From assembly GCA_965178125.1 (NCBI GenBank), contig OZ237738.1, forward strand, positions 248,001 to 312,000: a stretch of 64,000 nucleotides of DNA. The letters are read 5' to 3'. Both the position numbers and the translations under genes were made by a program. Within the stretch, counting starts at the first letter, position 1. Each line of letters begins with the position of its first letter. The stretch comes from Bilabrum cf. latius (taxonomy: Eukaryota). The notes beneath the pieces were generated by a model. The model saw only the letters and a program-made list of their open reading frames with translations, searched no databases and had not been told where the DNA came from. Below are positions 1 through 59,800 of this stretch, in pieces.

Positions 1-3000
1 GCGCGCCGTGCGCGAAAGCTAAGCGTCAATGTGATGGCGATAGACCGTGTGCCCGATGCGTCCAGCGCAATCATGCGCATTTGTGCATTGACAGCGTCGA
101 CAAGCGCAGCAAGTCATCAAAGCCGAACAGCTCGTAGAGCTCCGCTCGGTCTAGTACCCACAAAGTTGCTGCACCGCCAAAGCAACGATCAAGCGATTTG
201 AGTCTTGAGCTTGCTGATCCGGTGGCTGGCTATCCAAGGCCGCCCCCTGGGGGTGGGGTATGGGGCCAGGTGGGCGGGCAAGCCAGTGCCGGGCCCCGCC
301 CACAACCGCTCGTGATGCCGCCTGGAGGCACGCCAGGTGGAATACCGTACCTGGGTAACTCTCCGGGATCGGGAATTGCTGGTGGGCTAGTGAGGCGGGG
401 CCAGAGCGGCGGCTCTCCCCTAGGTCGTGGCGCATCAGCCGAGGCCTCCACAGCTGGCGCGCATAATCGAGGTGGGTTTGGTGCTTCTGGCTCTGGCACT
501 GGCAGGGCCGCGCTGGCCAGCGGGTACAGTGGGGAGATACGAGCTAGCTCTGGACGATAGGGGGGCGGCCGGAAGAGTCTTGCTGGCTAGGCAGTGTTAT
601 CCAACGTGTACCAGGCCCGGCCACCGCTTGACACGTCGGCAGGATCTGCAGTCGATCCCGGGTCTTTCTCTGGGTCCAGCTTGGCTCTTGATAGGTCGGT
701 GCTTCCCCCCTCTGGTCCTGGTTAGATGGACATGCAGCGTGGCTCATTAGGCGCTAGTTCTCGCAGCTTCGGAGCCGGGAGTGCGACTGATGCAGACCTG
801 TTTGCGGAGTCTGCACCGGCGCAACAGCACTCAATGGCGGGGCGGGGTGGCCATAGGGCGAGCGCGGCGTCCTCCTAGCCTGTTTAGCAGTTCTCATCCG
901 CATCTGGTACTCGTGGCACTCCGCAGGCAGCCCATTAGTCTGCTGCAGGCATGCCGATGGGCGCTGGACTGGGACTAGGGACCAGCTCAGCCGGTGCAGG
1001 AATGGAGAGGTTCCCCAGAGCGACCGCTCCGCCCTTCGCGGTGCCTTCCGGGGCGCAGTTTGTCGCAGGTGTGAGGGAGGTGTCCGCGTCTGACAGTAGC
1101 CGGAGCATTTCTGAGAGCAGAGAGATCGAAACGATGCTGCCACCGGCGCGACAGGACAGCAATACCAGCGGACAGTTTCCACTGCTCACGGTGCCGCCGT
1201 CTAGCTCGGCAGCTGCAAGACAGCAGTTGCCACCTGTCCGACCGCTGATGGTAGTTTCATCAGGTGGAAAACAGATCAGGGGCCCAGCGTACCGGCAAGG
1301 CGCGCAGGCAGGCGCCAGCAGCAGCGCCAGCAGCAGCAGTAGTGGTGCTGGGAGTGCTCTGGCGCAGGCGGGGCAAGGTTTGCTGCAGCAGAGCTTCAAT
1401 CGAGGCGGTCCAGGGCAGAATCCTCCCACGATGCAGGCCGTGCAGCAGAGAATGGGAGGTAGCAGTGACAGCCTGCCGCTGGGAAGCTCCAAGAACCGGG
1501 CTGAGCCGTCGCAGGAGAGGGGGGCCATCTACAGCGGGGCAGTAGCAGGGCAAAATGCCTTCCAGAGCGTGACATCTGCGGGCAGCATGTCCATGTTTTC
1601 ATCTGGATAGACGGGTAGGCAAGCTCCGAATCAGAATCAGGGGCAGACCCTGGGCCAAGGGGATGGCCAGGGCATGGGTTCACCTGGAGCCGCGGGTGCT
1701 CGACCAGCGCAGCCAAGCGGCATGTTCTCATCGGGGGGTACCCATGGGCCGCAAGCAACTGCCATGTTTTCGTCCGGCGGGACGGCGGAACAAAGCGGGA
1801 TGTTTGAGTCTGGTCAGAGCGTACCAAGGGGCGGGGCTAGCTTGTTTTCATCTGCCGGTTCCGCCCCGCAGGGGCAACAGACGCGATGGGCGAACAGTCG
1901 AGGCGGTACTGGCCCCAGCCAGTCACAGGGCGGCCCGCCAGCCACTGCCCAGCTGATGGATGACAAGGGAAACGTGCGGTTCCAGCTTCCTCTGCGGCGG
2001 CCGCATCGACGGAGGAAGGTGGATGGATTTGAGGGCGTGTCGATCGACGAGTGCGGTGGCCTGCGCATTGAGCTTGGCGACGTGGCGGGGACCGGACCGT
2101 CCTTGTCCACGGAAAGCGGTGCGAGCGCAAGGTCGTTGGGGCCATAGAGCGGGGGCTGCGGCAGCAGCGTGGAGCCGCCCAAGGCAGGCGTGAAGGCTCT
2201 GCTGGGAGCCGGAACGCACTTTGGGCTTGCGGTCCCTGCAGGCATCGAGGCTGAGATCGATTCCAACATTGGGCGAGTGGGCGACCTGCCGTCCGGACGC
2301 GACTGCTGGATGCCAGAGGATGACGCCGCGTGCGCTGCGTTGGCTTGCTCTGATGTGCCCTCAATCCACTACGTCCACGATGGTCGCAAGCTCGAGCCTG
2401 CCTACGTTTGGTACTCCCCAAGTGCGCTGCAGTTCCTTCGTATGGACAGGGGCAAGCTGCGATGGCTGCTTGGTGCCGTAAAGGGCAGCGTGTCCGGGAA
2501 GCTCAAGGCAAAGCGCAAGCGGCGCGGGAAGAGCAAGAGTGCGTTGGCTCCGTTCGTGTGGATCCACCCGGACGATGTGCCCGCGCACTCTGCTGCTATC
2601 CTGAGACAGCACCTGGTTAGACACGAAGAATCGAGGTCGATGGCTAGAGTGGTGGTGTTTGGCGCGCCGACGGAGCCCGACTATGGCAGCGGAGCATCCG
2701 TGGTGAGTGGTACAACAGGCACAATGCGAACTGGGGCATCCGCAGCAGGCGCTCCTGGGGCGGCCTCGACTGCAGGCAGGGACACTAGCATGCCGCTGAC
2801 TGGACCGCCTGCCAGCGAGCACCCGCTGGACAATTTGGTTGGTCGAGCAGTGCCCTGCGCGTGGGTGACCCGCGTGCACTGGCACGGGGTGTGCCCCCGG
2901 GCGATGACCGTCGTCATGCACCCGCTGCCGCGGGATGGCTGGCACATGCGCGCGTTCTACAACATGCCGAGAGGCATGTCTAGCAGGCAGCAGAGACTGC

Positions 3001-6000
3001 TGGCGTCTCAGCTGCAGCTCACCGTTCGCACTGGCGTGCTGCTTCCGGGCACGAGTTCGGACCCAGCGGAGGACGCTGCTGCAGCCTTGCAGGCGGAGCT
3101 CGCCAACGAGGATGCTGGCTTGCTGTCGCCGCGGCAATCCGAAGGCCAGGACAGTGTTGTGCTGAGGCGGTATGGCACGAGTCAGACCATCGCATCGTCG
3201 TTCCTGGGGCGGCACGGACTGCAACACATGGGTGTATCAGCGGAGTCGCGAGGTGCCTCCGTGACGGCCACCCCTCGCCGAGGCACCACCGAAGACGGCG
3301 ACTACCTGCCTCCGATGCAGGAGGACAGGGACATGGGAGAAATAGCCACTCCGCGCGCGGACAGGCTCAACGGCGGGCAGGAGGCTCCCGACCTCGTGGG
3401 AGTGACTGGTGCTGGGGCGCAGGCTCGACTGCGGATGCACCGATACTCGTCGGAGACCCCATCGTAGCCCCTGATCAACGGCGGACAGCGGGCCGACAGA
3501 TACACTTCGAGCAGGATGCGTGAGCGGGACTCTGCAGGCGGCAAGTCATCTGGGCGTGGTTCGAGCGGTAGCCGTTGGCACCTGCACACAGACGTGCGAC
3601 CTACTGATTACGATGAAGACGCTCAAGCTCCTTCTCCCATTGTGCCTTCACGCACGCTGCAGCCCGGCAGTGACGACAGAGCAGGGGCGAAGGGACGGGA
3701 TGCATCGGGCAGTGACAGCGTTGGGCTGCGGAATAGAGTACCTGCCCTGCCGATTCGCGGGGGAGGTCTAGGTCTAGGGTCCATGGGTCATAGCCAAGGA
3801 TCCGACTCTTATATACTTGGTAGCGCAGGCAGAATGTCCATTAGGAGCGAGGGTGCAGACGGTGACAGCATCAGGGGCAGTCACGACGGGCCGCGGGCTG
3901 CTCTGACACGCTCCATGCGACCAAAGCACGTGACGCGGCAGATGTCGAGCAACAGTGCCAGCAGCGGCTACTGGGACCAACAGAGTGCCAGGGCTATGAT
4001 GACGCAGGGCCGGTAGCAAGTGAAATCTAGCAGAGGACCCCACGGGGCCGCACAGTCTCCAGAGGTGCTTCGGCCCGACGACGTTATCGGGGCTGTCGCT
4101 GGGGGCATGCGGAATGACTCTGCCACTTCAGCGGCAGGTTACGGTCGGGGTAGCTACTCTATATCGGGCTCAATCGGCAAGAGTTTCTCTGGTATGGATG
4201 ACTTGCTGGCAGACGGGGCCCACGGAGAATCGCGGCCCGCGGCTCCAGGCAGTCTATCCTCGCGCGACAGCTTGGCTTCGCCGGGGCACGGCAAGCAGCA
4301 GTTGCCTATGGCAGGAGGTGGCTTCCGTCCCGGCGGGCGGTTGGGGACTGTGAGAGGCAAATTTCACTCGGATGGAGGACCTGGCAGTCCCGGTATGAGT
4401 TCGCCTCCCATGAGCGGCAGGCTGCCACCCGTGAAGGAGGGAGTGCAGTACGACGAGGCGATGCAGCGCGCCATGTCTGGAGATGTCTCCGATGCAGATG
4501 AAATAGAAATGGAGAGACCGATTCGTCGCAGGCAGGGTGAAAATGGAATGGGATCCCCTGGCCAGTCACGGGCGCCACGTCGTCTCCAGCCCCACCCGGC
4601 CGACCGTCAGCTGAACGGGCAGAGGCATTCCACGACGAGCAGTGACGAGAAGCGGCACTCCAGCGGATCGCAAGGAGACAACAGCGTGCGTTACCGCCGC
4701 ATGATGCTGCGGCCTGGTGAGAACGAGTCTTCTAAGCCCATTAGTATGAGTCGACTGCACGCGGACCCGTCTGGTTCCGGCGACCAGGGTGCGGCAGCAG
4801 GCCAGGCGAGCATGGAGGATGACGGCACCAACGAGTCGATACAGCCGATACCAATGCCGAGGGATGGCGATCGCGACAAGCGCGTAGTCTCGTTTGACCG
4901 AGAACAGCCGCGTCATATGCGCGGAATGCAGGGATCAGGCTCTTCCTTTGAGTTGGGAGCCAAGGAGGGGTGGCCCGGCTCCAACAGAATGTCCAGCGCA
5001 ATGTCAGAGGTTTCACTGCAGTCTTCAGTGCTGCCTCGAAAAAAGGCGCGATTCGGCCGATCAGTAGATCCTGACGTTGAGCATTAGCACGGCATGGTAC
5101 CCTTTGGGTCCTCTGCCGGCATGCTCGGCTCGTTGGGACCCGCGGGTGCCTCCGGTGATAGCAACGACAGCGCAATTCCCGGCGGGGGGCTGGACGTGCA
5201 GCCGCATGACCCGGTGCGGGGCGTAGGAAGCCCGCCCTTCGTGGCCAGTCTTGTAGGGTAGCAAAGCGGAGGGCGCAACGACGCTTCGTTTGGCTTCATC
5301 GGTGCAGGCGGGCGAGCTGCGGATCCCATGCTAACTAACACACAGGGAAATGAGATGTCGCGGATTGGCAGCTCAAAGGCAGTACCCAACTCCTGGGTAA
5401 AAAAGCGGCACGCATAGCAAGGCGGCAAGGCAGACTTTGCGATCGATCCTCGGGATGGATGTAGGGACCCGCGGCAGATCTCGCTTCGGGGCCCGTATGG
5501 TCTTCGCCTCATGCAGATGGCACTACTCGAGGTTGAGATCGCAGTCGGTTCAGATGGTGAGCTGTCTGCCTCCATGCACAGGGTAGTTGAGCTGGGCGAC
5601 AGCATGTGGCCGGTGCTGGATGCATTCAAGATTACCACTGGGAGAGGGGTTGAGGGTCAGCACCTCGTCTCAACGGGGAGCAGCAAGACAAGCATGGGGA
5701 TGCATGGCGCTTCCAGCCATGCAATGTCGGGTGCTGACACATCAATGAGCAGCCGGCGCGGCGCGCTGGTTTCGTTCGACCAGCAGTCGACCTCCACTGG
5801 TGGGCGGGGCTCGGTTGCCCGTGGAACGAGCGCCTCCCACTCGGCCCAGTCGACTGCCGTCAGCGCCCTGGCGTTCCCCGCCCTGTTCTGCGCTGCGAGA
5901 AGCGTTGCGACTGCGGTACGGTCCCCCGACAAAATTAGCGAGCATCCGCGCAGCGACATGCTTGCGTCCATTGTTCCCAGTGACCTGCAGGATAAGCAAG

Positions 6001-6446
6001 CTGGAGTCGGTGAGGGTGGAGCTGCGGCGGCCGACAAGCCTCCCGCCTCCTCCCTGCTTGGAGGCAAGAGGACAAGGTAGGAGCGACGCGAGCAGGCAAA
6101 GACTTCCCCCATCCAAGCCGGGACAGGTATGCCGCCACCGCAGTCTTCTGCAGATCAGGCGCCGGGCGGGGGCTCGAAGCAGCTGCCATTTTCGCTGCAA
6201 GTCGTGCTTGAGCCAACGCCGGTGCCCGTCGGGCTTGCCGCGCGCGCCTCTTCTGCCACGCTGCTGATGAGGTCATTCAAGGTGGCTGAGATGCTTGTGG
6301 GTGCAGCCGGTCGCGCTATGCAAATCTAGTCAGCGTTCGAGCTCACGGCCAGCCCTTACGGGGGCGGTAAGCGGTCACCGGCGTACAGAAGCGGTGACAG
6401 CGGCCTGACGGATCCGGATGGATCCGCGGGATCGGGTGGGCTTTGA
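1..6446 (+). CDS. Zn(II)2Cys6 (GAL4-like) zinc-cluster transcription factor, 5' partial, >2,140 aa, possible PAS-like domain
   Basis: Frame starting at nt 3 reads [C]APCAKAKRQCDGDRPCARCVQRNHAHLCID (C-x2-C-x6-C-x5-C-x2-C-x8-C; the first Cys codon is cut by the window edge). The frame stays open through about 16 in-frame TAGs, joining ORFs 198, 951, 1674, 2169, 3516, 4020, 5511 and 6129, to TGA at 6444-6446. The motif YVWYSPSALQFL...FVWIHPDD at about 2400-2580 is PAS_3-like. Confidence 0.85.
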
Positions 6447-6597: not shown

Positions 6598-9303
6598 TCA
6601 GAACCTGAAGGTCGTGCTCGCACCCATAGCCCAAGGAAATTTGTCACGGAGCGTCTGGGGGAAGACCTTCTCGATCGGGCAGCTGTTGCGCTTGCACCAC
6701 GCGACGGTGACGCGGGGGTCCATGTAGTTGATCTTGCTGGTGCTCAGACTCACGTTCTTGGTGTCGTCCTTGTTCTTGAGAGCAAGCTCCTTCTTGCGGA
6801 TCCTATCCTCGTATGACTTGACCCTTCTAGTGACCGTTTCCGCGCTCGGCTGCTGGCCAAACAAGTGCGACTCGGCGGCTCTTCGCTCCTTCTGCAGGTC
6901 GGTCAGCTCCGAGGTCTTCTTGGCCCAGTGCGGCTTGCTCGAGTCCTTGAGCTTGAGCTTGGTACCCTTCTTGACCTAGTTTCGCATCGTCTTAAGCTCC
7001 TTCAGCTGCTTCTTGAGCAAGTCCAAACTGGCCTGCATCTTAGCTAGGGACTTCTCGAAGCTCTTCGGCACTGATCTCTGATGGTTGCACAGGATGGCCA
7101 CCTTCTTGTTGGCCCGATCGTACTCTACCTTCATGTCGTTGGCGGTGGCCCACGGCTTCATGTCGCCAATCTCGCGCTCCAGCGTAATCGACGCGTTGTA
7201 GGTACGGAACACCTTGGCCGAGAGCCCAGGCATGAGCTTATGCAGCTCATCGTTCAGCTTGCTGGGGTTCAGCTCGTCAAACACGTCCTCCTGAGGCTGC
7301 TTGCCTCTGCAGAAGCTGCGAATGTTCTCGTACACCTTGCGCCCGATGCGGCCGTACCGCCCGATGTCGAGGGTCTGAAAGAACCTCATAGAATCCTTGC
7401 CGAGGAAGTCAAACGTGATTGCGTACTGCTTCTCCTCGCCTGCAGCAGCGGCAGCTGAAGATGAGGACGACGACGACGACGACGACGACGAGCTAGCCCC
7501 GCCCGTAGCTGCAGTGCCTTCCATGTCCTCGTCCTCCTCGTCGCTTGGCACCGCATCGTAGTACACCTCTTCTCCGTCCATCTTCGGCGCCCTGGGCCCG
7601 CCATCCTCCTAAAACTGGATGTGTTCCACTCGCAGGGAGCAGCATCCCACCGTGTCCGCCTCGTCGTCGTCCTTCTCTCCGCCAACACGCAGCGCCAGCC
7701 GGTCGATGATCCACATGGCGGTGCCGCACTGCTGCTCAAACTTGTCCCTCGAGTCCAGCAGCCGCTCGTAGTGCGACCTGACGCGCCCGATGATGCGCGC
7801 AAGCTTGCGCGCCTTCTCGTACTTGTTCATGTCGCTCTTGCCCTTGAACCCGCTGCTGGCCGCCAGGTACACGTACTTTGTGCCTCCCATGACGTTCTCG
7901 CGCCAGAAGGCCAGCCATGTGACGGTCGGGTCGTGTATGACTCGGCCCCACTGGTGACCAGGGACCGGGCAGGGTGGCACGACTGCCTCTGGGCTGAGGT
8001 TGAGCGTGATCTGCTCGGGCTCCACCCTCCGCTTGAGCGTGCCCATCTTGGGGTGTACGCCGCGCCCGCGGAACAAGCTCGGCGGCTCGCACATGTAGTT
8101 GCCCATCTTCTGCAGGTGGCCGTCCACGATGGCGTACCCGTGCTTGATCTGCAGCTCCGTCTTGCCCGACTTCGCCGCCTCCTTCTCCTCCTTGGTCATC
8201 GCGTCCTTCTCCTCCTTCAGCTTTTCGAACCGGGACACGAAGTCCTTGAAGTCCACCTTCTGCAGGTCCTTGATCTTGTGGTCCCTTCCCAATGCCTGCA
8301 CATGGTGTGTTTAAGAGCGGTGGAAACAGAAACAAGGGATTGCACACAAGCAGTGGTGAGACCAGGAGCACCTTCACCATCTGCCCTCATCGCGAGCGGT
8401 GCTCTGGTTGATCACTCTGAACTAGACGCGCGCGGTTGGCATTTGATCCAGCGGTCTATTCTCTCACCTTGCTCCAATCCTTCCAAAAATTCTTTCTGAA
8501 CAGCCTGGCAGTCTCCTCCTTCTGCAGCTGCTGGATGTTCGTGTACAGGCACTGGGCGTACAGGTTGGCCATCTCCTCCTGCACGGGAGTCAGGCGCACC
8601 GCTTCGCCCTCGTAGTACACGGGCAATCCATGCGGCTCGTAGTCTGGGGGGAAAATCACGCCGGCGTGCTCCATCGTGGTCCAGTGGGTGCCAGCCGGAG
8701 GTTCAGGCTCGTCCCACCATCGGTGGGCTTGCATGGCAAGGTCCAAGATCTTCAGATCGCTGAGCTCCTTTACCTTACCGGTCCTAGCCACTACCTTAAC
8801 GCCACTAGCCGATTTAGATTTCGACTTCGACGCCTTGCTTGCTGTTTTCTTCCCTTTCGCCTTCGCAGAAGGCTTCTTGGCCGCCTTGGGCTTCTTTGCC
8901 GCCGGCTTCTTGGCTTTTGCCTTCCCCTTCTTCGCTGAGGCCTTGCTTCCGGACTTCGATCCAACTCTTGCCTTCTTCTTCGCGGGCTGCATTGCAAAAC
9001 AGAGTCACAGATGAGGGCGCCGAGAAGATATGCGAAACGGTGCGACCTCCAGGCTAGCTAACACCAATCGGGGTCATACTGGACATTCTTGCTCACCTTA
9101 GATGTCTTTGATTCGCCATCATCATCAAAATCACCATCCGAATCGCCATCCGCTCCAGGTCCGCTGTCGTCTGAGGCTTCGAAGTCGTCTTCTTGGCCGT
9201 CGCTTTCAGCATACGAGATTTGGTCACGCTTTCGCTTCCTTGACGACCCTTCGCTTCCCCCTTCCATTGGTACCTGATCCGAACCGGCACCTGAGCTGGC
9301 CAT
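6598..9303 (-). CDS. TOP1: DNA topoisomerase I (type IB), ~807 aa, 3 exons: 9303-9097, 8986-8468, 8295-6598
   Basis: Motifs [79 protein letters not shown] and catalytic SKINYMDPR. Two in-frame TAGs (7609-7611, 6976-6978) must be read through to reach the catalytic Tyr. Ends at TGA. Confidence 0.97.
7466..7491. repeat. (GAC)8 microsatellite encoding poly-Ser in a TOP1 insertion
   Basis: gacgacgacgacgacgacgacgacga on the + strand; TCG run on the coding strand. Confidence 0.9.
8296..8467 (-). other. Spliceosomal intron 2 of TOP1 (172 nt)
   Basis: AAG|GTGAGAG ... TGTGCAG|GCA joins NFWKDWSK to [16 protein letters not shown], matching conserved TOP1 spacing. Confidence 0.9.
8987..9096 (-). other. 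Spliceosomal intron 1 of TOP1 (110 nt)
   Basis: AAG|GTGAGC ... TTTTGCAATGCAG|CCC joins KTSK to PAKKKARV in frame. Confidence 0.8.
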
Positions 9304-9512: not shown

Positions 9513-12500
9513 TCACACACGAATGGAGCGTCCCAACTCGTGCGAGCCACCCACCGGCTGCCTCGCTTTGGTCCCGTCCACGTTCGCATTGGTGCTAGAT
9601 CCAGCGCTCGTGTCCGGCAGAGCCACCGGCTGCCAGCCTCGAGCCTGGGCCGCAGCAGTGCCAATGAGCGCCTCCAGTTCCGCGCGAGCAGCTGCAGCCG
9701 CAGCCTGGGCCTCCTCCTCCTCCTGCCAGAGCCTCGCCAGCCCGTGCTCCCTGCTCCTCCTGACGGACCCTGCGGAACCGGCAAGCGCCGCCGCGCGCTC
9801 GCGGTACACCAGCCCGCGGGCAAAGCACGCGTGCGCGTGCTCCGAGGACGCAGTCGCGCCCCCGCCCGCCTGCCGAAGAACCCTGAGCAGAGACAGTACC
9901 ACCCGCTCGGACGCCGCCAGCAGCCTAGGGGACGCGGGGCCCAGCCGAGAGGCCGCCTCGGCAACGTGCCAGGGGGCGCACGGGGACGGGCGCGCCGCCG
10001 ACCCACCCGCGCCGGATCGTCCCATCCTCCCAGCATCTGGACTACCAGCTGCAGTGCCAGCCATGGCTGCCTGCGTGCTGTTGAGCTGGGCAGTGGACGC
10101 CAGGATGGCGCCTGTCTAAGTGGACCCCAGGCCGAATCCACCCCGCGACCCCGCGCCGCCACTACCCCTGCTGGAAAGCTCCGCAGCACCGCCGCTGAGG
10201 ATCTTCTCGTGCGATTCCACGCCGCTCTTGCGACCGGCACCGCCCTCTTGCCCGCCCTCCGCATCGCCGACGGCACCAGCACCAGTCGGACTGTTCCTGC
10301 CCGTTGCCCGCCGACCCACCAGCCCATAAGCACCCTGCGAGGCCACGAGCGCGCCTCCATCTGCCATGGCCAGCAGGTGCGCATCGGGAGACAGGGAGCT
10401 CCCCGCCGCCGCCCGCCGCGCCGCGTCTTCGCCCTAGCCCCCTTCGCCGCCAAGCTGGTCCGGGAGACCCGCCGCCCTGGTCCGGCTCGCCTCTAGAGCG
10501 ACCGTTGCCTCAGGCCGGGTGGCTCGGTGCAGCAGCTGGCCAGAGGCCTCTGTCGCGCTGTCGATGGCCCGCAGGGAATCGACGCCCAGGCTCGTGCGCA
10601 GAGTCTCCGGCGAGGCTCGGCCGAGGGCACCAGCCGCGTGTCCGATCTCCCGACCGAGTTCCGCATCGGCGGCGCCGCGCCGCACGGCTCCCGGCAGCGA
10701 TGATCCGATCCCCCCGAAGGGTTTTCCCCTGGAGGATGCTCTCCTCCTCACGTCGGGGTCATCTGCCGCCTCCTCTTCCGCCTCATCTTCGCCCAGCTTG
10801 GACTCCCCGGCACCAGACCCGAACCCCACCAGCGCGCCGCTCGTGGCGAGCACGCCGCCGGTTGCATCGGGCAACGAGTCCCTGTGCCTGATGGCGGCTG
10901 GTGACCCGGGCGGCGCCCTGGAGGCAGCCAGGTGCTGCCCCGTCCTGGCCAGCTCCAACCCCACGATGCCTACCTGCTCCAGCCAGCCCTGGGAAGATGC
11001 GTCCCTTGTCACCCGCACGTTCAGCCTCTCCGCAAGCGAGAGCGGGGTCTGTCCCCGCCTGTTGTGCCGGAGCACGAGGGTGGCTCCCTGGTCCCTGGCT
11101 CCCAAAGCAATCGCTGACACGCAGTCGGGCCTTAGCGCACGCACCGCCGTGTGCAGAGGTGTGTCGCCCCACGCATTGGCCGCAAAAGGGTCGGCGGGCG
11201 CCCATTTGGCGCTTCGGGCTGCTTCTTCCTGCTCCTGGGTGAATCCAGAGGGCCCGGGCGAGTCGAATATCCCGAGCGAGCCGTGCACCCCCCGGCCTCC
11301 GACGCGGCCACGCAGCAGCAGCTAGCAGAGTCGGGCATGCCCGCGCGCAGCCGCAAGGTGCAGCGGTGTCCACCGGAGTGGCCCACACGGTGCGCTGGCA
11401 TCGGCCCCCGCGGCCAGCAGGTGCACAGCGGCGGCTTCACAGCCGGCGGCGCACGCAGCGTGGAGCGGGGTGTGCCAGTGTTCCAGCCATCGCACCAGCG
11501 GTGGCACACCCCCGCCCCTTGCCCCCGCACGAGCGGCCCCACCGAAAAGCCAGGCGGGCATCGAAGGATGCAGCGCGGCCGCAAGCGTCTCTCTCCGGAA
11601 CTGCCGAGCCGCAAACCTGCCGCGCTCGCCAGCCGTCGGGCTGCTCCCGCTCGGACCAAATGCAGACGGCGAGTCACCACCACCGGTCGCAAACATGGGG
11701 CTGCCGAGCGTGGGAGACTCGTTCCCTGCCGACAGGAATCCCGAGCCGCCCAAGACCTCTGCCGCATCAGTCAGGTCGCCCCCCATGGCTGCCTGCAGCT
11801 CCTCGGCCCAGGCAAGGGACAGCCGAAGGGAATCGCCGTCCGAGCCAGCAGCATCTGGCAGCAGGTCGAGGTCTAGCGACGGGCCCTCGCCCTGAGACCC
11901 AAGCACAGCCTCCAGCGACGGCTCATCGCCGCCGCTGCCAGTGTGGCTGCCTGCGTGCTGCTGCACGATGCGCTCAGCGGCAAGCGACCGCGAAGATCGC
12001 TCGCCCTCCGTTGCAGGCGAGGCTGTGGCGGCACCAGCACCAGCGCCAGCAGCAGCGGCTGCGCGCCTCCTCGCCTCCCTCTCTTGCCTCGCCTCCCACA
12101 GGGACCGCGAAGTCGCGAAGCTCAGCGCCCCGCGCGACACACCGGAACTGGCCACGACGGCGAGACCTGGGGGATTCGCAGTCGTGGGCTGCACCCAAAA
12201 GCCGGCCTGCACAGCGAGCCACACGGGCAGTTCTAGCGCCAGCGGCCCGCCGCACGCCAGGGCTGCAGCTAGCCGCCGCCTGTAGAGCTGCTCTGCGGCG
12301 GCCATGGGCAGCTTGCTCGGGCGGTCTTCCACCTTTTGCAGGGCCTGAAGAGCACCGCGAGCCGCAGCACGCAGGCTTTGCGGGTCCGCTGGGGAGGGCA
12401 TGCTTCGCTCCAGCAACGGGCCCCCCGCAGTCTGCGGCGACTCCGCCTTGATGGCCCGGCAAGCGAGGGCGGCCACGTGCCACGGACCAAGCCGCGGCCC

Positions 12501-33831: not shown

Positions 33832-33853
33832 TGCCGTAGATTCGATTGCGTAA

Positions 33854-47800: not shown

Positions 47801-50800
47801 TCTCTGAGGACTTCGGCGATTGTGACCCTGACGCGGACTACTGCTTCGCCAAGATGCCCTCCTTCCTAAAGGAGGAGTCCACGCAGCTGATGGCTCGCGA
47901 CAGCAAAGGCACCACGTACATCTGGACCTTCGACCCGAACAATGACGTGGCCCACCGGGCCTGGCTTGCGTTCAGCAAGGGCGAGGAGACTCTCTACGAC
48001 GTGCTCGAGGACAACTCTGGCCTGGCCTCGGGGCACGCAGACAAGCACGTGTGGCAGCCAGTTGTGGTTGCGCAAGGCGGCTTCCACGGCCGAGAGTAGT
48101 CTTAGTTCATGTACCGGCAGCAGAACGGCATCAAGTCGATCATGCTGGATGACGACGGGTGCTCCTGCTACTCCACGCTAGAGATGGGTCACCCTATGTG
48201 CGGCAACTCGTGGGACTCTCAGTTTGCTTCTGGTGATACCGGGGCTGATGCCATTAACGATGATGGATGCAACGGACCACAGGAAGGTGTTGGTCTCGAG
48301 CTGTTCTTCCGAGAGACTCGCACCGGGGCCACCATGCCTACGGTCCGTACCGAGTCTGCTAGCATCGTCAGTTCGGCAGCAGCTCCCGCTGTTCGCGTCA
48401 AGGTTGTCCGTTCTGCTGCAGGTGGAGCCATCACAAAGCGCTCTCGATCTGCTGGCAGCGGAGCAGCTGCACCTGAGATCGTGGTCGGATTCCACACTGT
48501 GGCAGGCAGTGCTGAGGCTGGCACCCATTTCCTGGCAGCAAGCGGCGAGATTTCGTGGGCGCACGGCGACACGAGCCCCAAGTACATCACGGTCCCGCTG
48601 CAGTCCTCCGGGGCCCAGGCTATCACGGATGACAAGCACTTCACCGTCACGCTGCAGGCACCGCGTGGGGCCCGCTTCCCCGCGCCCCATCCACGCGCTT
48701 CCATGCGGGTAGACAGCGCCGCCTACCGGTCCGTGCGTCAGACCCGTGTCACCCTGCAGCCCATCGTGGGGGCTGGGGGCACGGCGGGCCCGCTTCGTCT
48801 CCAGAGCGTGGGTGAGGGCCAGCTGCACCAGGACGAGCTGAGGCCACAGGTGGACTTCACTCTGCCCGCTGCCATGCAGGCTGGCAACATCGCCCGTGGG
48901 CAGCCGGTGTTCACCTCAGGCTTCCGGTCCAGCAACCGTACCCGGTCGCAGAGCGAGCAGTCTCTGGTGGATGGCAGGTACGGAGACCTTGATGCATTTG
49001 TGCCCGCCGCTGACATGTTCAAGTCTCGCGCCCAGTCCAGGGACTACTACTATGCCGCTGTGGTGCTGCCTGATGGCGGCAAGCGGGTCCGTATGGTGGC
49101 CTTCGGGCGCGACAACACCGGCGTGTTTGCCAACCGACTGATGGGTAACATCACGCTGGAGTACACCCGCGTAATGAACCCTACTGCGACTACCATGGAC
49201 ACCTCGTGGGTCGAGATCGACACGATCCAGCCCACTTCGCCACTGAGGCACCTGTACGCACTCAACACGCCTACTTTTGCCACAGCCCTGAGGCTGAAGC
49301 TTGCCAATAGTACCGAGGGCACGCTGGTGATCGATGAGTTCGAGGTGTATGCTGACACTGGGTCCGCAGACACGACTTCTGACCTGGAGGCCTCTTACGA
49401 CTTCACTGCGGATCAGATTGCCACCAACCTGGGTCAGGTGACTGTGGCTGATCTGTCCGGTAACGACCGCACCGCCGAGGTTGAAGGAACTGTGCAGTTC
49501 CCTGCAACCGCCTTCCAGATCTCTTACGTTAGCCTGCGTGGATCGGGGGGTTTCCTCCGCGTTCCCGGCCTGCGTGGAGCCAATTTCTCGAGGACCGGCC
49601 TGACCGTCAGCATGCTGGCTCGCAGGGCACCCACGGATGCCGCGCGGTAGAGCAGCACAGCTTCACTTTTCAGCACAGGGTATGCCAAGGACAGTCAGGC
49701 GTTTGACTTGAGGTACCTGCAGAGCCCAACTGCGCCCAGCGGAACACCTACCATTCCTCTCACCCGTGAGGTGGCGCAGACTGGATTTTCGGCTCTGCCG
49801 GGCTCCTAGGCCATGCTCCTTCCCGACGACTCGACCGAAACCGAAGACTACTCCCCCCCAGGTGTGTCAGTTGTCGGTCAGGTCGAGGATGCGCCCGCTT
49901 GGGTGATGCTGACGGCAGTGTATGACCGTGACACCAATCGCACCCAGCTGTATGTCAACGGACAGCAGGCTGCCGATGTCGCTGTGGATGGCCTACCCCA
50001 GGTCAGCATCGGGAGCGATGTCACGATCGGCGCGGCTTTGGCTGGTCCTGGCAGTACCACTGGCGGAGGCCGAGGTGTGGTTCCCGGCGGATTCCATGGC
50101 GATGTCGGTCGTGTTCGCGTGTTCAGTCGCGCCCTGACCCCGGATGAGGCGGAGCTTTTGTACGATGAAGTCGCGGATGACATGGCTACAGATGGATATG
50201 CCCTGTGGTGGCGCACCCAGGAACAGAGCGGCAGCTTGCTGCTGGATGCTTCGGGGCACAGCAACTCTGGCAGCGTTGGCGGAGGTGTGTGGAAGGACGG
50301 CGCTCTGCACTTCAGTGGCTCATCGGGCAGCACTGGCAACGGCGCGAGGTCCCTCAGTAACTCTGGACTCGTGGGTGATGCCTCCTTCACGATGTCTGCT
50401 TGGGTATACTACGACGGTGACTTCATCCCGTCTGGTGTGAGTCATATCATGGGTACTGACCTGTCTGGTGGTGCCTCGGCAACTGGCAGTGACTATGCCA
50501 CGCAAGGTACCGGCGTGGCCCTATCATTGCGCAGTGGTGTGCTGTCACTCGAATATGGCCAGGATGTGCGCGTGCAGGGTACCAGCGCACTGGCGCCCAG
50601 GCGGTGGTACCATGTGGCAGTGGTCCGCCGCTCTTTAGAGAAGAAGGATGCGGGAACGCACCTGTTCCTTAACGGTGAGGAGATCAGCACGCAACTGCGC
50701 AAGCCCACTGCGACCTCCGCCGAGGCTGCCCAGAACGCACCCGCGATCGCGGCAGCCCCAATCAGCATTGGTCGACTGGGCTCTGGTCGGAGGTGGGCTG

Positions 50801-53800
50801 GTTTCATCGTGGATGTACGCGTGGTCGCAGAGGCTCTGCGCGGCAGTCGGCTGGTTCGGCTGTACAACAACGGCTTGTTCGTGCGTTGGCCCCTGCGGGA
50901 GGGCAGCGGTACTCAGATCGGCAGTGCTGACTCGATGGACGAGATGGACCCCTCCACTGACATCGAGGTGTCCCAGAATGTAGGACGCGGCGGCCAGCTG
51001 ATCGGAACTACCAACAGCATGGCCTGGAACAGGGGTCTATTGCAGCTGGGCAACCAGGCCGGTGATGCTGTGCGGTCTCTGGCCGCGATGCCTCTGCTCG
51101 GGGATGCGGGGTTCACCATGATGGCTTGGGTGTACGCTAGCACACCTGCCACGAGTGGCGGCTGGGCAGGTGGATCAGTGCCCGGCGTATCTCCAGTACC
51201 ATCCGATGCCATCGACAACACCATCGTGGAGGTGGTAGGTGTGAACTCCACTGGCAGCAGCGGCGGGCTGGCGGGTCGCGGCGAGGGCGCAGTCCTCGGC
51301 GTGGATGGGGCTGGCAGGATCGCGATCGATCTCGGTGGGTCTCTTCGAGTCAGATCCGTGCCTTCCGTTGTGCCTCTCCAGCGGTACGTGCATATCGCCG
51401 TGGTGAAGACGCCAGGGATCGTGAGCACGTCTTCCGTGAAGCTCTTCGTGGACGGTAGCCAGGTAGCCCCCACTGACTTGCGGGTCGTCTCGGTTGTGGA
51501 GCAGACCACTGTGTCACCCACTGCACTGAGCTCCGAGTCTTTCACTGGGTCGGTCAGGCCCAGCTTCCGCTCTGGCACCTTCGTTGTCGGTGCTGTGTCT
51601 GGACCCAGTGCCCCCAGACGCGCCCAGCTGGTAGGATACGTTGACGATGCCCGCATGTACCTCCGTGCAATCAGCAACAGCGACATCACGAGGGTCTACG
51701 ATGATTCGCGCAGGTCACACGTTCTAGACTACTCGCTGAAGTTCGACGGGCGCGGTGAGCATGCGCGATGGCAGTCTGCCTTCTCGTTTGGACCCAGCAC
51801 TGGCACCAGCTCCAACGCTGGCATGACGATCGAGGCGTGGGTGTTCCCGTACAACAGTGCCAGGGAGGGCCAGGTGATCTTCGAGACTAACGATGGTCCC
51901 GGGTCCAACGACATGCAGCTGAGGATCGGTGCATCAGCTCCGTACAACTTCGAGTTCCATGTGCAGAGCAGCTCATCCGCAACAAGGGAAGTGGTGCGCT
52001 CCTCGACGTCTGCGGCTGCCATGAGGTGGACCCACGTCGCGGTGACGCTGGCCACCTCTGGATCTGGATCGACAGCCACCACCACGATGCAGCTGTTCCT
52101 CGACGGCACTTTGTCCGGCTCGCGGGTGCTGACAGGTGAGGCCCCCACCACCAGGTAGCGGGCTAACATGTTCGTCGGTCGTGGAATGAGCGAGCCCGAC
52201 GACGAGACGTGGTATGGGTTCATCGATGAGCTCAAGCTGTGGAGCGTGAAGCGGACTCCGGAGCAGATCGATTCCTCCATGAACGGCAGGGAGCTGCAGC
52301 CCGCATCAGCTTCGGCATCCCAGGCCATTGGCCTCGAAGCGTTCTTGCCCATCGACATTTCGTCTTCTAGTCCTCACCACGACGACGTGCTTGCCGACCT
52401 GACAGTGCTTGAGGACGCATCTGTGCGCGGGCGCACCTTCCTTCTGTCTCGCGATTGCGAGATCGACGGTTGCGTAGTACTCAACCCCAGGTAGCTGATC
52501 AAGACCACGTGCGGCAATGGATTCAGGGATCCCGATGAGCAGTGTGACGATGGCAACCAGATCGCAGGTGACGGGTGCTCGGCGGGGTGCTCGATCGAGA
52601 CTGGCTTCGTCTGTCGGCGCGTGGCTCAGACCGGCGCTGATCAGTGCTTTGAGGGCAAGGTACTGTTCGAGGAGAGCTTCGAGAGCACGAATGCTATCAA
52701 CGCTTGGAGCAGGGTATCCAGCCAGCTGCAGGGCGCGGCTATCAGCACTGACTACGCCTCAATGGGCGCCAGCTCGTTGCAGCTGCGTGCTGCCGAGTCC
52801 GCTTCGGGCACTTCCTCGGTGGTGACCTCTGCTGCAAGGCGCGTGTCAGGTCTCTCTGGCATGGCGGCCTACCCGGACTTTTTGTCGTTCCGGTACTTTA
52901 TCCGCAACTCAGGGTCGAACAACATCATCTCGAGCGTGCCTGTCATGGTGCAGGTGTTCGATGCCACGGGGCTGTCCAGCTCGCAGTCACTGCCCACTCC
53001 CACTTCCTGCGTCAACTCTGGCTGCTCTTCAGCCAAGTATGTGATGGTGTGCATCGACCCCCAGGGCTCCACAGGCTTTGGCGCGCAGCATTGCGACATC
53101 GTGATCCGCTCTAATGCTGACGGTGCCTACCCACCCGGGCATGGCGCCAGCGGTGCAGCCAGCTTCTTCTACGCCAACATCGACATCACGCACGCCTTCC
53201 GATCCAAGTACCAGAGCAATACAGGCTTTTCGCTGCCCACTTAGGTAGAGATTCGAATGATGGCACTTGCCGACAACGGCAACGTCGAGTCCTACGTGGA
53301 TGAGATCCGCCTGCAGGAGCTGCGAGGCGCCGAGGCTGTGGCCAGGGTGTGTCCCCCCGCCAAGATCGTGACCATGCCCAAGTGGAGCGCAGAGATGGAG
53401 GACGGCTACTGGACCATGGAGAGGTCTTACAACTACCAGCTGGGAGCAGTGCAGCTGTCTGACCATCCCACCAGTACCGTCACTTACAGCATGTGGGCAC
53501 GCAATCTGCGATACAACGAGCTGTCACACCACAGCTGGAGAGTTCTGGCCCACTTCCGGACCGACAGCTGGTACTACACGTACCAGGTCTACGCCGTAAG
53601 TCCGAGGCTATCCACGCCGCGTTTAGAGCCCAGGTTTATCTAATTTCTCCCAATGCGTAAGCTTGATTCGACTGTGCTATTCTAGTATCCAACGTATTCG
53701 TTTTTCCCGCAGAGTGGTTATCAATACTACGCCTATATTCGGAGCGGCAACTGGGGACCCCGCTCGTACAACCACATGAACAAGGGGTAGCGATGGGAGC

Positions 53801-56800
53801 ATATTACTGTATCGTACACCACCGATTCCAACAAATAGTCCTACGGTTGCAACAGCGGCACTGCGTACATGTTTGTGCAAGGCGAGCTTGAGGGGGTGTG
53901 GTGCAACAACTACGGCAACCTACGTGCAGACGGATGGCTTGGTGTTGGAAGTTACGTCAGTTCCATCTCAAATAGTTGGCCGCGGACTAGCTACTCGCAC
54001 AATTGGGACGGCGACTTGTCCCACTTCAGCATTTTGAGTCATGCCATCACAAACGCCGATGACGCCCGCGAGCTCATGCACGCCCAAATGTACGTGGACA
54101 TGCACGAGTCGCTCAAGGGGCACGTGTACGCATTCTGGTCTGGCATGACTGAGCACGACATCACCGGCAACCAGGCTGGTCAGGGCGACGTGACTTGGTT
54201 TGATCAGACCGGGAACCACGATATTGACATGATGGGCAAGCATCTGCGAGGTCTTGAGGTGCCTGTCTTCGTGAACGAGCGCGACCACAAGGGGGCTGGC
54301 CTCAGGCATGCACCATCCAACGATTTCTGGGGCGGGTCTTTGACCACGCTTAAGAACCCGAGGCCCACCTCCCGCGTGTCTCGCCTGCGCAATGCACGGC
54401 ACTGGGGTGGCCGATGCCAGATTTACTCGTCTTCAACAACGGACTCGAGCAGCCCGAAGTCCTGGTTTCCCACGCAGACATATACTGTGGTTGTTTGGGT
54501 GCGGCCGCAGTTCAACACGTAGCCGTACTCTTACCCGGTACACCTCGCCAGTTCCTCGAACCAGCAAGAGTTTGCCATGTACAAGTACACTACCTACAGC
54601 AGTGAGTCCCACTACTGAAACGCATAAATACTTCATTGAAAATAGACAACTCGCCTCGAATTTGAATCTTTTGTAGCGCGCGCAGTGAGACATGTGATCA
54701 GGGGATCTCATTACAATGGCCCGTACAGCAACTGGGGGTCGTTCTCCAGGACGGGTGGCAAGTGGATGTAGTTCATCTTTTCCTACGAGGCGTCCAAGTA
54801 AGCAATTGGCCTGTGTGTCGTTTTATAAGTTAATGTTCATGCCATTGCATGTTTCTCTGCCTTGACGAACTTCCTTCTCGCAGCTGCGGCAACATGCGGA
54901 CGTGGCAGAATGGCGCCGGCGGGGAGTACTATGGCACCAGCCACCCATACAGCACTGACTCCACCAGTAGGCAGTGCACAAACCGCGGCAACCTGGGCCA
55001 TGCCACTGCGTCGGGCGCTGCCCACTGGGCCATCGGTGGGTACATCAACAGTCGTGGCTCTACTTCTCAGAGCTCCGGCAGCGCGTTCTACGGCCAGGTT
55101 GGCCCAGTGACTGTGTACGAGAAGGCCATCCTGACCACGTACGAGGCCGAGATGATCTACCGTAACCCGACCAATCTGCTTGACGGTGACCTTGTGGCCC
55201 AGTGGTCGTCCAGCTTCCGGATCACCAACAGCGACTGGAGGGCTCGCCGGGCAGATCGCCAGTACGCCGATTTCGGTGGAATCGACCTGAGTTGCGGACA
55301 CAATACAGAACCCTACATCGTCCAGCCGAACGGTTTGGAACGCCCGTCACTGTTGAACTCATCCTACATCCCATTCGTTGATTTCACCGGGTATGAGATG
55401 AACAAAGCCACTCGATTCAGAGGAGCCCATGCCCGGATTGTCGAGTTCGACGACATGCCAGAGGAGGCCTTCAGCGTCAGCGTGCTGGTCCGGGTGGACC
55501 CCACGCACATGGAGGAGGACTGCATCTTCTCATATTTTTCTTCCTCGTCCCGGCAGTTCTCGCTGTGCTTCCCGGCTGATACCTCCTCGACTAACCCAGT
55601 GCGCCTCTCGCAGAACATGAAGGGATAGATCGGCTCCACCAGCTTCGACTTCCCCGACTCGCCAGCAGGTCACGTGGCCACCGGTGAGTGGGTCCACGTG
55701 GTGATGTCATGGGCCTCCAGCGATGGTATCCCCAGGCTCTGGATCAATGGCGAGCAGCAGACGCACAGCACTCCCATCCTCAGGGGATCCGATATGGACT
55801 CGGGCGGGTGTTTGATGCTGGGTCGAAAGGCCACGACGGCTGTGTGCGGTGTGTCCTCCGCGGATGACGACTCGTTCGAGGGCCATGCGGCCCAATTCTC
55901 TCTCTTTGACCATGGCCTGTCGGCCACTGAGGTTGACGCGCTGTACCTGGCAGCCCCCTCTGGCCTGGAGGATGGCCTTGTACTGGCTTGGCTGAACGCG
56001 GTGCCCGGCCCCGACCCAGAAATGGATTCGGAAGATCTCATGGACCGGGACGAGTGGAAGATCGGTAGGGGTCGCGAGACCGTGAATACTCTTTGGCGAG
56101 ACCTACTTCGCAAGAATCACGGCGAGTTTGTCGGCACCACGAGCCAAAGCCTCATGCCACACTGGGTGCATCCGTCCAACATCATGGCTGGAGCCTGGGA
56201 CGGCTACTACGCGTACTATGCGTACACCAGCTAGTACTTTTCGTGAGTCGCAGACTCTTGCCTATTACGTAGCTGTTTGTGGTCTTATTCCCCCTCATCT
56301 TGCTATGCACCTCTGCTTCTTGCTCATACGCGGCCTCAATCTCGCAGGAGGTGGCATCATAAGTACTGGCTGGACGGACATGCCGAGTTCTACGGAACCT
56401 CGTACAACTCGCGCTACACGTCCATCAGAACCTACCATAATCCGAAAAAGAGTGTGCGCTACTACAATCGAAACAACTACTGGACTTACTACACGTCGTC
56501 TACCAGTGGATCAGGGTCGAGCTACTACTCACCGCTGCGAACCGTGGTCAGCGGACTCTCCAGTGGCACTCTCGCCTCAATGCATTCCGCTTGGTATGGT
56601 GAGAACTTCAGTCTGCTTTGTAATGTTCTCGCGAATCATGAAATACTTCATATCGAAGTGTGCCAGTTTAATACTTCTCTACGCCTTTGCAGGCCCATAC
56701 TGGCAACCGCGCTCTGGACTGTATGCTCACGCGTATGAAGCTGCCGACATGCTCGGGTGCAACAACTCGTACCCGTACGCTGCATCAACTGGTACGAATT

Positions 56801-59800
56801 ACTGGGGCTACATGTGCCTTGGACTCCGGAGCACGGGAAGCAACCCTGGCCAGATGATTATCAACGCTGCTGCACAAGCTTGGTACGAGAGTGGCTACAG
56901 CGCTGGTACGTTCACATCTATCCGCTCATCCATCATCGTTGGCGAGTCCAATGGCGTAGTTCAGGGGTCGGCGAGGAACTACAACTTTACCGAGGCCTCA
57001 CCAGGTCAGCCTGGCATCAACATGGTCGTTTTTGATGAAATTAACGGCAGGGTTCGTCGCATGGCCGTGTTTGACATGTCTTCTCACGGAGCCAATGGGC
57101 CGGACGGTCTCATCAGCCTGCTGCAAGAGATCGAGACGAATGTGACCCGGCCTGAAACCCGCTCTGAAGCACCCGATGACCTATTGGTCTACGTGTCGGC
57201 CATGCCTCCAGTGCGTGGGTACAACAGTACAGCAGCCATGTGGTTCAAGCGGGTGCTCGGGCATTCGCTGCCCTCTGGGCCCATCAAGGCGATCAGTTTC
57301 GTCGCAACGCCTGGTCCTGATTCTTCCAATTTCACTGTGTCTGCATCAGAGACCGAGTATGGCCCGTCCACCGTGCGCCGGGACGGTCTGTGCTCCAAGC
57401 AGACCTACGAGCTGCCTGCAAACATGCGCGTGCAAGGGGCGCCAATCGGCTTCCCGGTGTCATTCGGCACCTCGTCCGGTAGAGCAGACACTCGGGCCGT
57501 GCGAGTGAGCGAGTCTGCTTGCGGTGTGGTTCATGACGGATCCAGCGCCAGTGACGGTGGTGCTTTCAACGTCACTCAACACAATGGCGTGCCAGTGATT
57601 GCCGAGCCCGGTGCCATCGGGGTCAGCGGGTGCAAGGTGCACAAGCTGTGGCTGCGCACCCCTTCAAGCAGAGCAAGGTACGATTCAGGTTGGTTTGCTG
57701 TCCAGTCGGAGCACGGCACACTCTCGCAAGTGGACAAAAGTCATGACGTTGGTGTGCAATCGTTTGCTCATCACGAGCTGTACGGCGAGGTGAAGATCTT
57801 AAGCGGTAACAATGCAGACTTTGTGGCTCCCATGATCTACATGATGCCGTTCAACGATTATTGGAACGAGAATTTTGGCGGCGTTGCAGCTATGTTCAAC
57901 TCAACTGAAGTTTCCGTGATGGCTTATCGCAGCTACAGGTACGGGTACAACAATCGGCGCTACGGCTTCTTCAATCCCTTTGACCAGAGCGGCACTACGT
58001 ACCAAGCCGACAGGCGAGTGGACGGCCGCGTGCGCATCTTCGATGACCTGGCTTCTCCTGACTATGACAGCGGCTGGTTCCACGTTCGGTCTCAAGGAGG
58101 CACAGATTCTTACTATGAGATGTCGCACGGTCTGGGCAAGACACCAGCCAAGGTTCGGGTCATGACCCAGATGGGGGAGTCCAATCAGTGCTACCGTGGA
58201 TGGCATCAGTATGCACTGCCTAATGGACTTGTCAGTGATCTTGTACGTTACGAGCATTCGTCGACCGTGTACACCTATGATGACTCACACGTGCACGTTC
58301 TTGGCCCCGATATCCAGAGGTACTACTCGTACGGTCGGGTCGCTGGCAAGGGGGCCGGCTGGGGCACTGGAGGATATTGCATCAATTACTACGCACAGGC
58401 CCGGGTGCAAGCTTGGGCTGACGATGCCGTAGCTCCTGATTTTCAGACTGACTGGTTCGAGATGCAGTCCGGCACAGGGTGCTCCTCGTCGCTGCGGAAC
58501 CGTAACGTGCAGGAGGTGGCGCATGGTCTGGGGCAACGCCCCGACTACGTGGAGGTTTGGGTGAGAGTGCCAGAGAGCACGCCTACTTATGGTGGTCTCA
58601 TGTTCAAGGCAACCGGTGCAACCGGTGGGCACAGCTACCACTCTTCTGGCACACTCACCGCGTGGTCCAGCACCGTAGTGCGCATCTGGATGTCGTGCCA
58701 GTACAAGCGCGGCATCTACCTCACCGGGTTCGGCGGCGAACGTCTCCAACTGCAGGACTCCATCACTAAGGTTGACATCAAGGTCCGAGCCTGGGTAGAC
58801 TACCCAGGCGGCACTGGAGCCGGTGTCAGTGGGGTGACTGTGAACATCAATGATGCGAACAGGCCACCTGTCCTGCCTGACCTGGTCGTGGATGTACCTG
58901 AGACGGCAGAAAGTGGATAGGATCTGGGCGCCCTGGCTGCCACTGATCCCGATGGCACGTCTCAGTTCACGTATGCGATTGGCACTGGAGACTCGCTGGG
59001 CCTGTGGAACATCGGTCAGACTTCCGGCATGCTTCAGGTCAAGGAGTCACAGTCTTTGTCCACGAACGATGGACAGATCCGCCGATTTGTCACGACAGTG
59101 TCAGATGGTGCGCAGTCTGATTCGGCCACGGTGACGGTGCGCCTGGAGGACGCCAACCGCCCGCCCGTGGTGTTCAGTGCCGAGATGGAGGTGCCTGAGA
59201 AGAGCCCCTCTGGGACCCTAGTGTCTGGCATTCTGCGAGCCGTGGATCCAGACCGTGGCGACTCGATCCTGTACTCGATTGTCGGCGGCAACATTGGCAA
59301 CACGTTCCGCATCGCCGGTTGTGGTGGCGAGCTTCGCGTCGGAGATTCCTCTCTCCTGGACGTGGACCTGTACGAGGAGTTCCTGCTGGAGATCCTGGTG
59401 CAAGACGATGGTGTGCCGGCTCTGAACTCCACGGCATTCGCTCGTATCCGAGTATTGGACGTGAACGAGCCCCCGATCTGCACATAGCTCACCCGTAATG
59501 TGAGCGAGACGGCAGTGGTCGGCTCTGCAGTGGGCATGCCGCTCGATGCATACGAGCCCGAGGGCCAAGACCTGCTTTGGGAGCTGTCGTACGGCAACGA
59601 TGACGGTACTCTTGAGATTGACCGATTCACCGGACAGGTTTCCATCAAGCGTGCTGGTGTGCTCGACTTCGAGACTGCTCGCGAGCGAGTCGTCGGATAC
59701 GTCGCCACTGATGTAGGTGCGCCGCCTCTGTCCTGCCAGGGTCAGCTCAGGATTGATGTCTTGAATGCAAACGACGCGCCTGTTGTGGCCATCAACCCGA

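Follow-up and report, generated by a model that had tools for sequence, protein, structure and literature searches.

Reassignment of UAG alone to glutamine (a table 15 type code; the name code 15 comes from PMC9523058) has been described for Iotanema spirale (PMC5304391) and for the ciliates Hartmannula sinica, Trochilia petrani, and Protocruzia tuzeti (PMC11687900). According to the latter paper, UAA and UAG are nearly always reassigned together, UAG-only codes occur in a few protists that are mostly AT-rich and UAA-dominant, and the dominance of UAA as a stop is offered as the reason why it stays one. The window analysed here is a 64,000-nt stretch (G000:C4:248001-312000) of a 48.6 Mb assembly of 111 contigs. 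Its DNA is nuclear, and its host is, to judge from protein sequences, a bicosoecid-like stramenopile, a unicellular flagellate of marine type with kinship to Cafeteria. In the nuclear genes of this host TAG almost certainly encodes glutamine, a reading based on alignments, while UAA and UGA remain terminators and UGA is the main stop. The host adds a further case, independent of the others, to a code that is rare but already known, and it is distinctive in its UGA-dominant termination and its atypical tRNA.

With all three standard stops in force, no reading frame of the window exceeds 944 codons. When TAG alone is read through, frames of 5,598, 2,961, 2,638, 2,147, and 1,558 codons open up; reading through TGA alone gives a longest frame of 1,363 codons, and TAA alone one of 944. 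Thirteen long window frames hold 100 in-frame TAG, some of them upstream of the start codon. Five frames were checked for the other two stops: neither TAA nor TGA occurs inside them, and the two shifted frames of the same five contain 3-15 TAA and 20-97 TGA each. The window encodes recognisable eukaryotic proteins (topoisomerase I, RRM, RING, MYB, lysyl-tRNA synthetase, glycosyltransferase, laminin-G, cadherin, and ankyrin), and a Pfam family was found for 10 of the 14 window queries. An earlier note on this DNA, made from the sequence alone, had proposed that TAG encodes glutamine; all 11 TAG codons that it cited are in place, in frame, and in the peptide contexts quoted.

A 264-kb region around the window contains 61 long frames; TGA closes 53 of them and TAA eight, some of these ends being intron borders. 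TAA terminates the genes for H4, H2A, one H3 copy, and eRF1. TGA terminates other H3 copies, H2B, PRP8, two dyneins, glutaminyl-tRNA synthetase (GlnRS), three subunits of RNA polymerase, and a GluRS-like gene. Of 3,346 Gln-type codons, 429 (13%) are TAG, and TAG is present in 56 of the 61 frames. UAG might in principle be dual, meaning glutamine inside genes but stop at the ends of some of them through context-dependent termination, which very short 3' untranslated regions (UTRs) would help. Two window genes do have 3' UTRs of 25 and 44 nt, and eRF1 keeps T32, reported to contact the G of UAG (PMC5304391). We nevertheless consider a dual role improbable. Near the 3' ends of the 61 frames TAG becomes neither commoner nor rarer: it accounts for 0.13 of Gln codons in the interior and for 0.21, 0.10, 0.16, 0.11, and 0.11 in the last 10, 20, 30, 50, and 100 codons, the last 10 containing just 4 TAG and so giving little power. 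Moreover, TAA or TGA closes all of the conserved C-termini that were checked. One paralogue pair with TGA in one copy and TAA at the same position in the other was dropped as evidence on stops because both triplets apparently lie in splice donors.

The dynein genes provide many sites at which the amino acid can be read. The genome contains 24 dynein-domain matches, 17 of which list internal stops, all of them TAG. Nineteen dynein stretches together hold 270 TAG, and 18 of them are open over 3,274-3,333 codons; no internal TAA was found in the dynein and window frames checked. In an alignment of the paralogues, Gln is the majority residue in 29 of the 59 columns with a 50% majority opposite TAG. 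The equivalent figures for control codons are 296/509 for CAG, 33/58 for CAA, and 16/814 for GAG, and the residue profile of TAG correlates with those of CAG, CAA, and GAG at 0.96, 0.92, and 0.86, respectively. Comparison of TAG usage with codon families across the dyneins was discarded, as it follows all A/T-rich codons and does not single out Gln.

The dynein-2 gene, which contains 46 TAG, was aligned to 120 homologues. Opposite TAG, Gln is the conserved residue in 7 of 8 columns at the 90% level and in 9 of 22 at the 50% level, compared with 6 of 11 and 12 of 34 for CAG. Summed over 42 of the 46 TAG sites, the log score is +19.5 for Gln and -20.2 for Glu, the next best residue, a score that is not a probability because the homologues are related. 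As a control, the same scoring decoded 61 of 61 sense codons correctly.

Near-identical duplicates, taken from the laminin-G/cadherin cluster of the window and its second copy on the same contig, point the same way. In the two pairs at 97% identity, the 14 non-TAG codons opposite TAG are 11 CAG, 2 CAA, and 1 AAG; neither GAG nor TGG, the other sense codon one transition from TAG, is among them. Across all six duplicate pairs, 78 aligned TAG face 50 TAG, 16 Gln codons, and 12 others, which come mostly from the more diverged pairs. Single sites agree: the TAG at human position 44 of eRF1 falls where 83 of 86 homologues have Gln, and a TAG in a resident integrase falls on the Gln of the PQxxG motif in Ty3 and foamy-virus integrases. 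The proposal that TAG is glutamine is thus upheld in four independent tests, namely the dynein paralogues, the dynein-2 orthologues, the near-identical duplicates, and the single sites in eRF1 and the integrase, and in the conserved columns opposite TAG neither Glu nor Leu, Tyr, Trp, or Ser predominates.

Glutamate is the second commonest majority residue in the dynein paralogue columns (9 of 59), the D stem and C38 of the candidate decoding tRNA described below are also found in tRNA-Glu(CUC), and UAG is reported to encode Glu, Leu, or Ser in other protists (PMC11687900). Even so, a reading of UAG as Glu, Lys, Ser, Leu, or Trp has next to no probability. Glu lies 40 log units below Gln in dynein-2, an equal Glu tail is seen opposite CAG (53 of 509 dynein paralogue columns), and the replacements in the 97% duplicates include no GAG or TGG; the dynein-2 score and the duplicates effectively refute these assignments.

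Two of the original supporting arguments for glutamine do not hold up. TAG was said to sit often beside CAG or CAA, but such codons make up 38 of 856 neighbours, a 1.16-fold excess (p=0.19), with a 1.88-fold figure beside CAG. Internal repeats had been used as alignments, but within one protein the repeats differ from each other at the cited ankyrin, cadherin, and MFSSG positions (MFSSGGT occurs twice and MFESGQS once), so the repeat matches are selected examples. The implied origin of TAG from CAG by one transition fits the codon traffic, but the tRNA described below is not obviously a tRNA-Gln derivative.

TAG is retained in what appear to be transcripts. No sequencing run is recorded as RNA, and the RNA nature of runs X1-X3 is inferred from splicing and poly(A) in assembled contigs, rather than from raw reads. 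A 92-nt GT..AG intron of the window (29548..29639, reverse strand) is spliced out in X1-X3 contigs and retained in X4; its removal indicates that the X1-X3 contigs, which also end at gene borders, derive from spliced RNA. The contig of the MYB gene (33861-38716) carries poly(A) 44 nt beyond its TGA, and all 14 in-frame TAG are unchanged in it. Six X1 contigs span 28 in-frame TAG with no differing letters, and more than 20 of these sites are likewise unchanged in X2 and X3 contigs. Because spliced, polyadenylated contigs carry TAG unchanged, U-to-C editing or splicing-out of TAG is unlikely, and TAG is retained in mature mRNA. A standard code could otherwise be saved by such editing, by micro-introns, or by dismissing the frames as pseudogenes or assembly errors. 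In its favour, a single transition separates TAG from CAG, the identification of the runs as RNA is a guess, and X1 is labelled as probably DNA. We give this explanation hardly any weight: in addition to the contigs, duplicates have TAG at matching codons, TAG occurs in the essential single-copy genes eRF1, PRP8, and TOP1, and a tRNA(CUA) gene exists.

This tRNA(CUA) gene (G000:C23:907607-907679) lies in nuclear DNA of 61% GC, has fully paired stems, and is followed by a T run. It scores 69.8 bits, the best nuclear match among the 63 of 780 candidates that were scored. ARAGORN labels it 'Pyl', a label based on the anticodon only; the columns opposite TAG are Gln. A genome-wide search with a CUA/UUA anticodon-loop pattern gave 17 matches and recovered the gene; no tRNA(UUA) was among them, though tRNAs with an intron or of atypical form would escape this pattern. 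Neither tRNA-His nor tRNA-Leu(CAA) was seen among at least 100 pattern matches and the 63 scored candidates.

A position-wise comparison set the tRNA(CUA) against 34 distinct tRNA-like sequences of the nucleus, with three ARAGORN hits left out. The closest is tRNA-Tyr, with 39 of 57 positions and 12 of 14 in the acceptor stem, and within this set only tRNA-Tyr shares its C1:G72 pair. Ser(CGA), Gln(CUG), Glu, and Gln(UUG) follow with 35, 34, 33, and 32 of 57. Its T stem is identical to that of Ser(CGA) and its D stem to that of Gln(UUG). Unrelated pairs of tRNAs average 27.8 positions (standard deviation 5.3, maximum 43), and an acceptor stem match of 12/14 occurs in 3 of 535. Since unrelated pairs also reach such likeness, a Tyr origin of the tRNA(CUA) is no more than suggestive. 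A check of its identity elements against tRNA-Gln, which had been recommended earlier, gives a divided result: G73, U35, and the Gln(UUG) D stem are present, but the acceptor stem is nearer to Tyr.

The same likeness to tRNA-Tyr could mean that UAG is read as Tyr or ambiguously. We judge this very unlikely, given that Tyr is depleted opposite TAG in the dynein paralogues (log2 -1.07) and lies outside the five best dynein-2 scores. In addition, the tRNA(CUA) has G73 and not A73, a conserved Tyr determinant required by tyrosyl-tRNA synthetase (PMC9976931). Charging with glutamine has a parallel in E. coli, where GlnRS is reported to charge amber derivatives, carrying U35 and G73, of tRNA-fMet, -Trp, -Ser, -Asn, and -Lys (A73G) (PMC9976931). 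The tRNA(CUA) resembles these Gln-inserting suppressors from non-Gln tRNAs in its CUA anticodon, U35, and G73. Unlike those laboratory mutants and their bacterial enzyme, it is a natural eukaryotic gene, and its charging is predicted.

We propose the following mechanism. The tRNA(CUA) would decode UAG, its C34 being unable to read UAA, which may be why only one stop has moved. The cytosolic GlnRS, which looks unmodified, would charge the tRNA through U35 and G73; its anticodon-binding region shows no departure at columns 85% conserved in 150 homologues. The Gly found where the human enzyme has a basic residue is common (84 of 150 homologues). Finally, eRF1 would read UAG poorly or lose to the tRNA.

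The eRF1 gene (G000:C35, locus L072 1068-2941) ends in TAA and contains two in-frame TAG, one of them directly before a splice donor. These account for 2 of its 16 Gln-type codons, and both fall in the N domain, responsible for codon recognition. Next to its codon-reading motifs the protein carries G29A, N30D, I35V, and S60V at positions that are nearly invariant in 86 homologues, and its second TAG replaces Leu at position 69, a position linked to UAG recognition (PMC5304391). Should eRF1 still read UAG weakly, TAG in its own gene would create a feedback loop, though this is speculation.

Several observations weigh against parts of this account. In the dynein paralogues, 30 of the 59 majority columns opposite TAG are not Gln (Glu 9, Arg 7, Lys 5, other 9); two TAG sites in PRP8 lie opposite His and Pro; and at position 69 of eRF1 82 of 86 homologues have Leu and 4 have Gln. 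Neither of the two TAG sites in TOP1 is Gln-conserved, and both of their columns are variable and were set aside as uninformative on the codon. The tRNA(CUA) bears C1:G72, a tyrosine determinant, and its acceptor stem is not that of the tRNA-Gln genes in this genome. The eRF1 retains T32, E55, NIKS, S70, and YxCxxxF. It is also divergent throughout, with exon joins inferred from DNA, so its substitutions can be offered as hypotheses only and none is attributable to UAG. As regards the columns, CAG and CAA miss Gln at rates similar to TAG, and the lineage is fast-evolving.

Compared with described codes, the host is of table 15 type: UAG is Gln, UAA and UGA are stops, and TAG is a minor Gln codon in most genes. 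TAG-containing genes (56 of 61 frames) compare with 78-84% in two ciliates (PMC11687900). It differs from the known UAG-only Gln cases in its supergroup, Stramenopiles, and in its main stop, TGA (53 of 61 frame ends), as opposed to UAA for 92% of H. sinica genes; UGA is reported to end only 8-13% of genes in two UAG=Gln ciliates (PMC11687900). A tRNA(CUA) gene is in hand here, whereas detection failed in H. sinica and T. petrani (PMC11687900) and one is only predicted for Iotanema (PMC5304391), whose T32G change is absent from the eRF1 described here. The UAR=Gln code (table 6; ciliates, diplomonads, ulvophyte algae) likewise has UAG read as Gln via tRNA(CUA). Unlike in that code, TAA is not reassigned here: it is absent inside the frames checked, it ends H4, H2A, and eRF1, and there is no tRNA(UUA) among the 17 pattern matches. 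The host is also unlike the ambiguous stop/sense codes of Condylostoma and Blastocrithidia, as none of the conserved C-termini checked has TAG as its stop and TAG is not depleted before the stop, with low power in the last 10 codons.

The nearest named matches of the window's TOP1 are oomycetes (stramenopiles), and those of dynein-2 include Pythium and Cafeteria. The nearest named match of eRF1 is Cafeteria (69%). An eRF1 tree of 31 rows, including 30 of 120 matches picked by name and rank, groups the host with Cafeteria at 91/88 (not starred), within a 15-row set at 100/99 that contains both named bicosoecids. In a tree of a dynein-2 slice (23 rows) the host joins the Cafeteria clade on a long branch (Shimodaira-Hasegawa-like approximate likelihood ratio 82). 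The host is probably a distant, long-branch relative of Cafeteria burkhardae/roenbergensis rather than that species itself. It resembles Cafeteria in its GC-rich, intron-poor genome, mitochondrial UGA read-through, and endogenous virophages, and differs in that the non-standard code named for Cafeteria, in the available text, concerns the mitochondrion only (PMC6972860). Since Cafeteria eRF1 and the 4,414-aa dynein-2 are annotated whole and the only non-standard code named is mitochondrial, the Cafeteria nucleus appears to use the standard code. The host's own mitochondrial contig (G000:C111; 38,401 bp, 24% GC) has TGA read through, a tRNA(UCA), and TAA stops, and shows no sign of TAG as a sense codon; mitochondrial UGA read-through is reported in Cafeteria and Cafileria (PMC6972860, PMC6723347). 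No nuclear code reassignment in stramenopiles was found in the literature, supplements and most subscription journals being outside the scope of the search, and the available portions of PMC12220804, PMC11412368, PMC12574857, and PMC12560768 say nothing about the nuclear code of stramenopiles. The TAG=Gln code of the host may already be entered in a database.

A related species may share the code. Two topoisomerase I proteins, P0001 and P0241, form one cluster 84% identical to the window TOP1, and both stop immediately ahead of a column where the window TOP1 and the next six matches have Gln, as expected if the related species' gene has TAG there. A metagenome scan for P0001 DNA gave one unrelated locus at 30% identity.

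The genome also contains an endogenous virophage-like element, multi-copy, AT-rich (~37% GC), and longer than 25 kb. Copies lie at C5:270001-291200 (L170-L172) and C7:1144200-1170000 (L175-L177), with similar sequence near C9:664000-666500. It encodes a major capsid protein (PF22031), an rve integrase, a methylase, and a tRNA-Met(CAU) that recurs on several other contigs. In the C5 and C7 copies the frames are complete only with TAG read through, and TAG stands at matching places; the resident viruses therefore follow the host code. None of the viral contigs searched matched the tRNA(CUA/UUA) pattern or the integrase. Code 15 figures among the viral codes in a giant-virus catalogue of 2026, according to which every isolate was obtained from a host with the standard code (PMC13524828).

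Along the window, the first feature is a low-complexity protein frame of 2,147 codons (3..6446, forward strand) with 16 TAG (including 1608 and 4014), a TGA end, and no Pfam family. The last exon of TOP1 (6598..8310, reverse) has 2 TAG in unconserved columns and a conserved C-terminus ending in TGA. The ankyrin-repeat frame of 5,598 codons (9513..26309, reverse) holds 21 TAG (including 14409, 18117, and 18111) and ends in TGA. The RRM protein exon (26544..29547, reverse) borders the 92-nt intron, and its 4 TAG (28404, 28446, 29106, and 29235) are unchanged in transcript-like contigs. A 529-codon frame with no family (30078..31667, forward) has 4 TAG. It is followed by a double RING-finger protein (31411..33831, forward) with 5 TAG and a TGA end, whose transcript-like contig stops 25 nt past the stop codon, and by a three-repeat MYB protein (33905..38581, reverse) with 14 TAG (including 34853, 36110, and 36920) and a TGA end. 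The RING and MYB genes are convergent and nearly touch (33831-33905), with the 3' UTRs of 25 and 44 nt given above. Lysyl-tRNA synthetase (38935..40962, start approximate, forward) ends in TGA and has no TAG after its start Met, the 5 TAG of the frame all lying upstream. A glycosyltransferase (DXD) frame (41145..44039, reverse) has 6 TAG, unchanged in a transcript-like contig. Laminin-G/pentraxin exons (44758..56246, forward; 44758-53643, 53644-54618, and 54834-56246) contain 16 TAG, and a cadherin-repeat frame (56086..63999, forward), which runs past the window, has 7 TAG within it (including 58918 and 59956). Such a cluster of giant laminin-G and cadherin-repeat genes (44758-63999) is unusual for a stramenopile, and it is duplicated in inverted orientation ~80 kb away (G000:C4:370055-393782; 78-98% identity). 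Between the copies, TAG is exchanged with CAG in the laminin-G part and with CAG or CAA in the cadherin part, whose duplicate is 97% identical.

Elsewhere in the assembly, a divergent 1,700-nt 18S array lies on C12, and a second 18S of conventional length, unlike it, at G000:C95:6099-7900 (L048). By eye the latter looks dinoflagellate-like, and a small amount of foreign DNA may therefore be present in the assembly. A tRNA-like repeat with a GGT anticodon, a long variable arm, and an imperfect acceptor stem occurs near the ends of at least seven contigs (C6:2445, C9:4362, C11:1340305, C12:1321472, C14:1213368, C18:1115851, and C23:7854) and is probably subtelomeric. Nuclear tRNA-Ile genes with a GAT anticodon, uncommon in eukaryotic nuclei, are present at loci L008 and L041.

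The finding adds an independent origin of the code in a supergroup with no nuclear case in the literature searched. UAA is a minor stop here and yet unreassigned, which favours the simpler account that a CUA anticodon cannot read it. The tRNA, GlnRS, and eRF1 sequences, missing for earlier UAG=Gln cases, are now available, making the mechanism directly testable. Gene calling with the standard code truncates this lineage's proteins, as seen in P0242, which ends exactly at a window TAG. As a tentative and, taken whole, rather doubtful scenario, this may be the first nuclear code change in stramenopiles. An amber suppressor on a tRNA-Tyr scaffold would have been captured by GlnRS (A73 to G73, with a Gln-type D arm) in a GC-rich genome with UGA as main stop, by a route unlike the printed prediction. 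The code would extend to at least one more species and have been adopted by virophages, and such flagellates would be the missing hosts of TAG=Gln giant viruses. Because bicosoecids host giant viruses and virophages, they are a candidate host type for recoded eukaryotic viruses.

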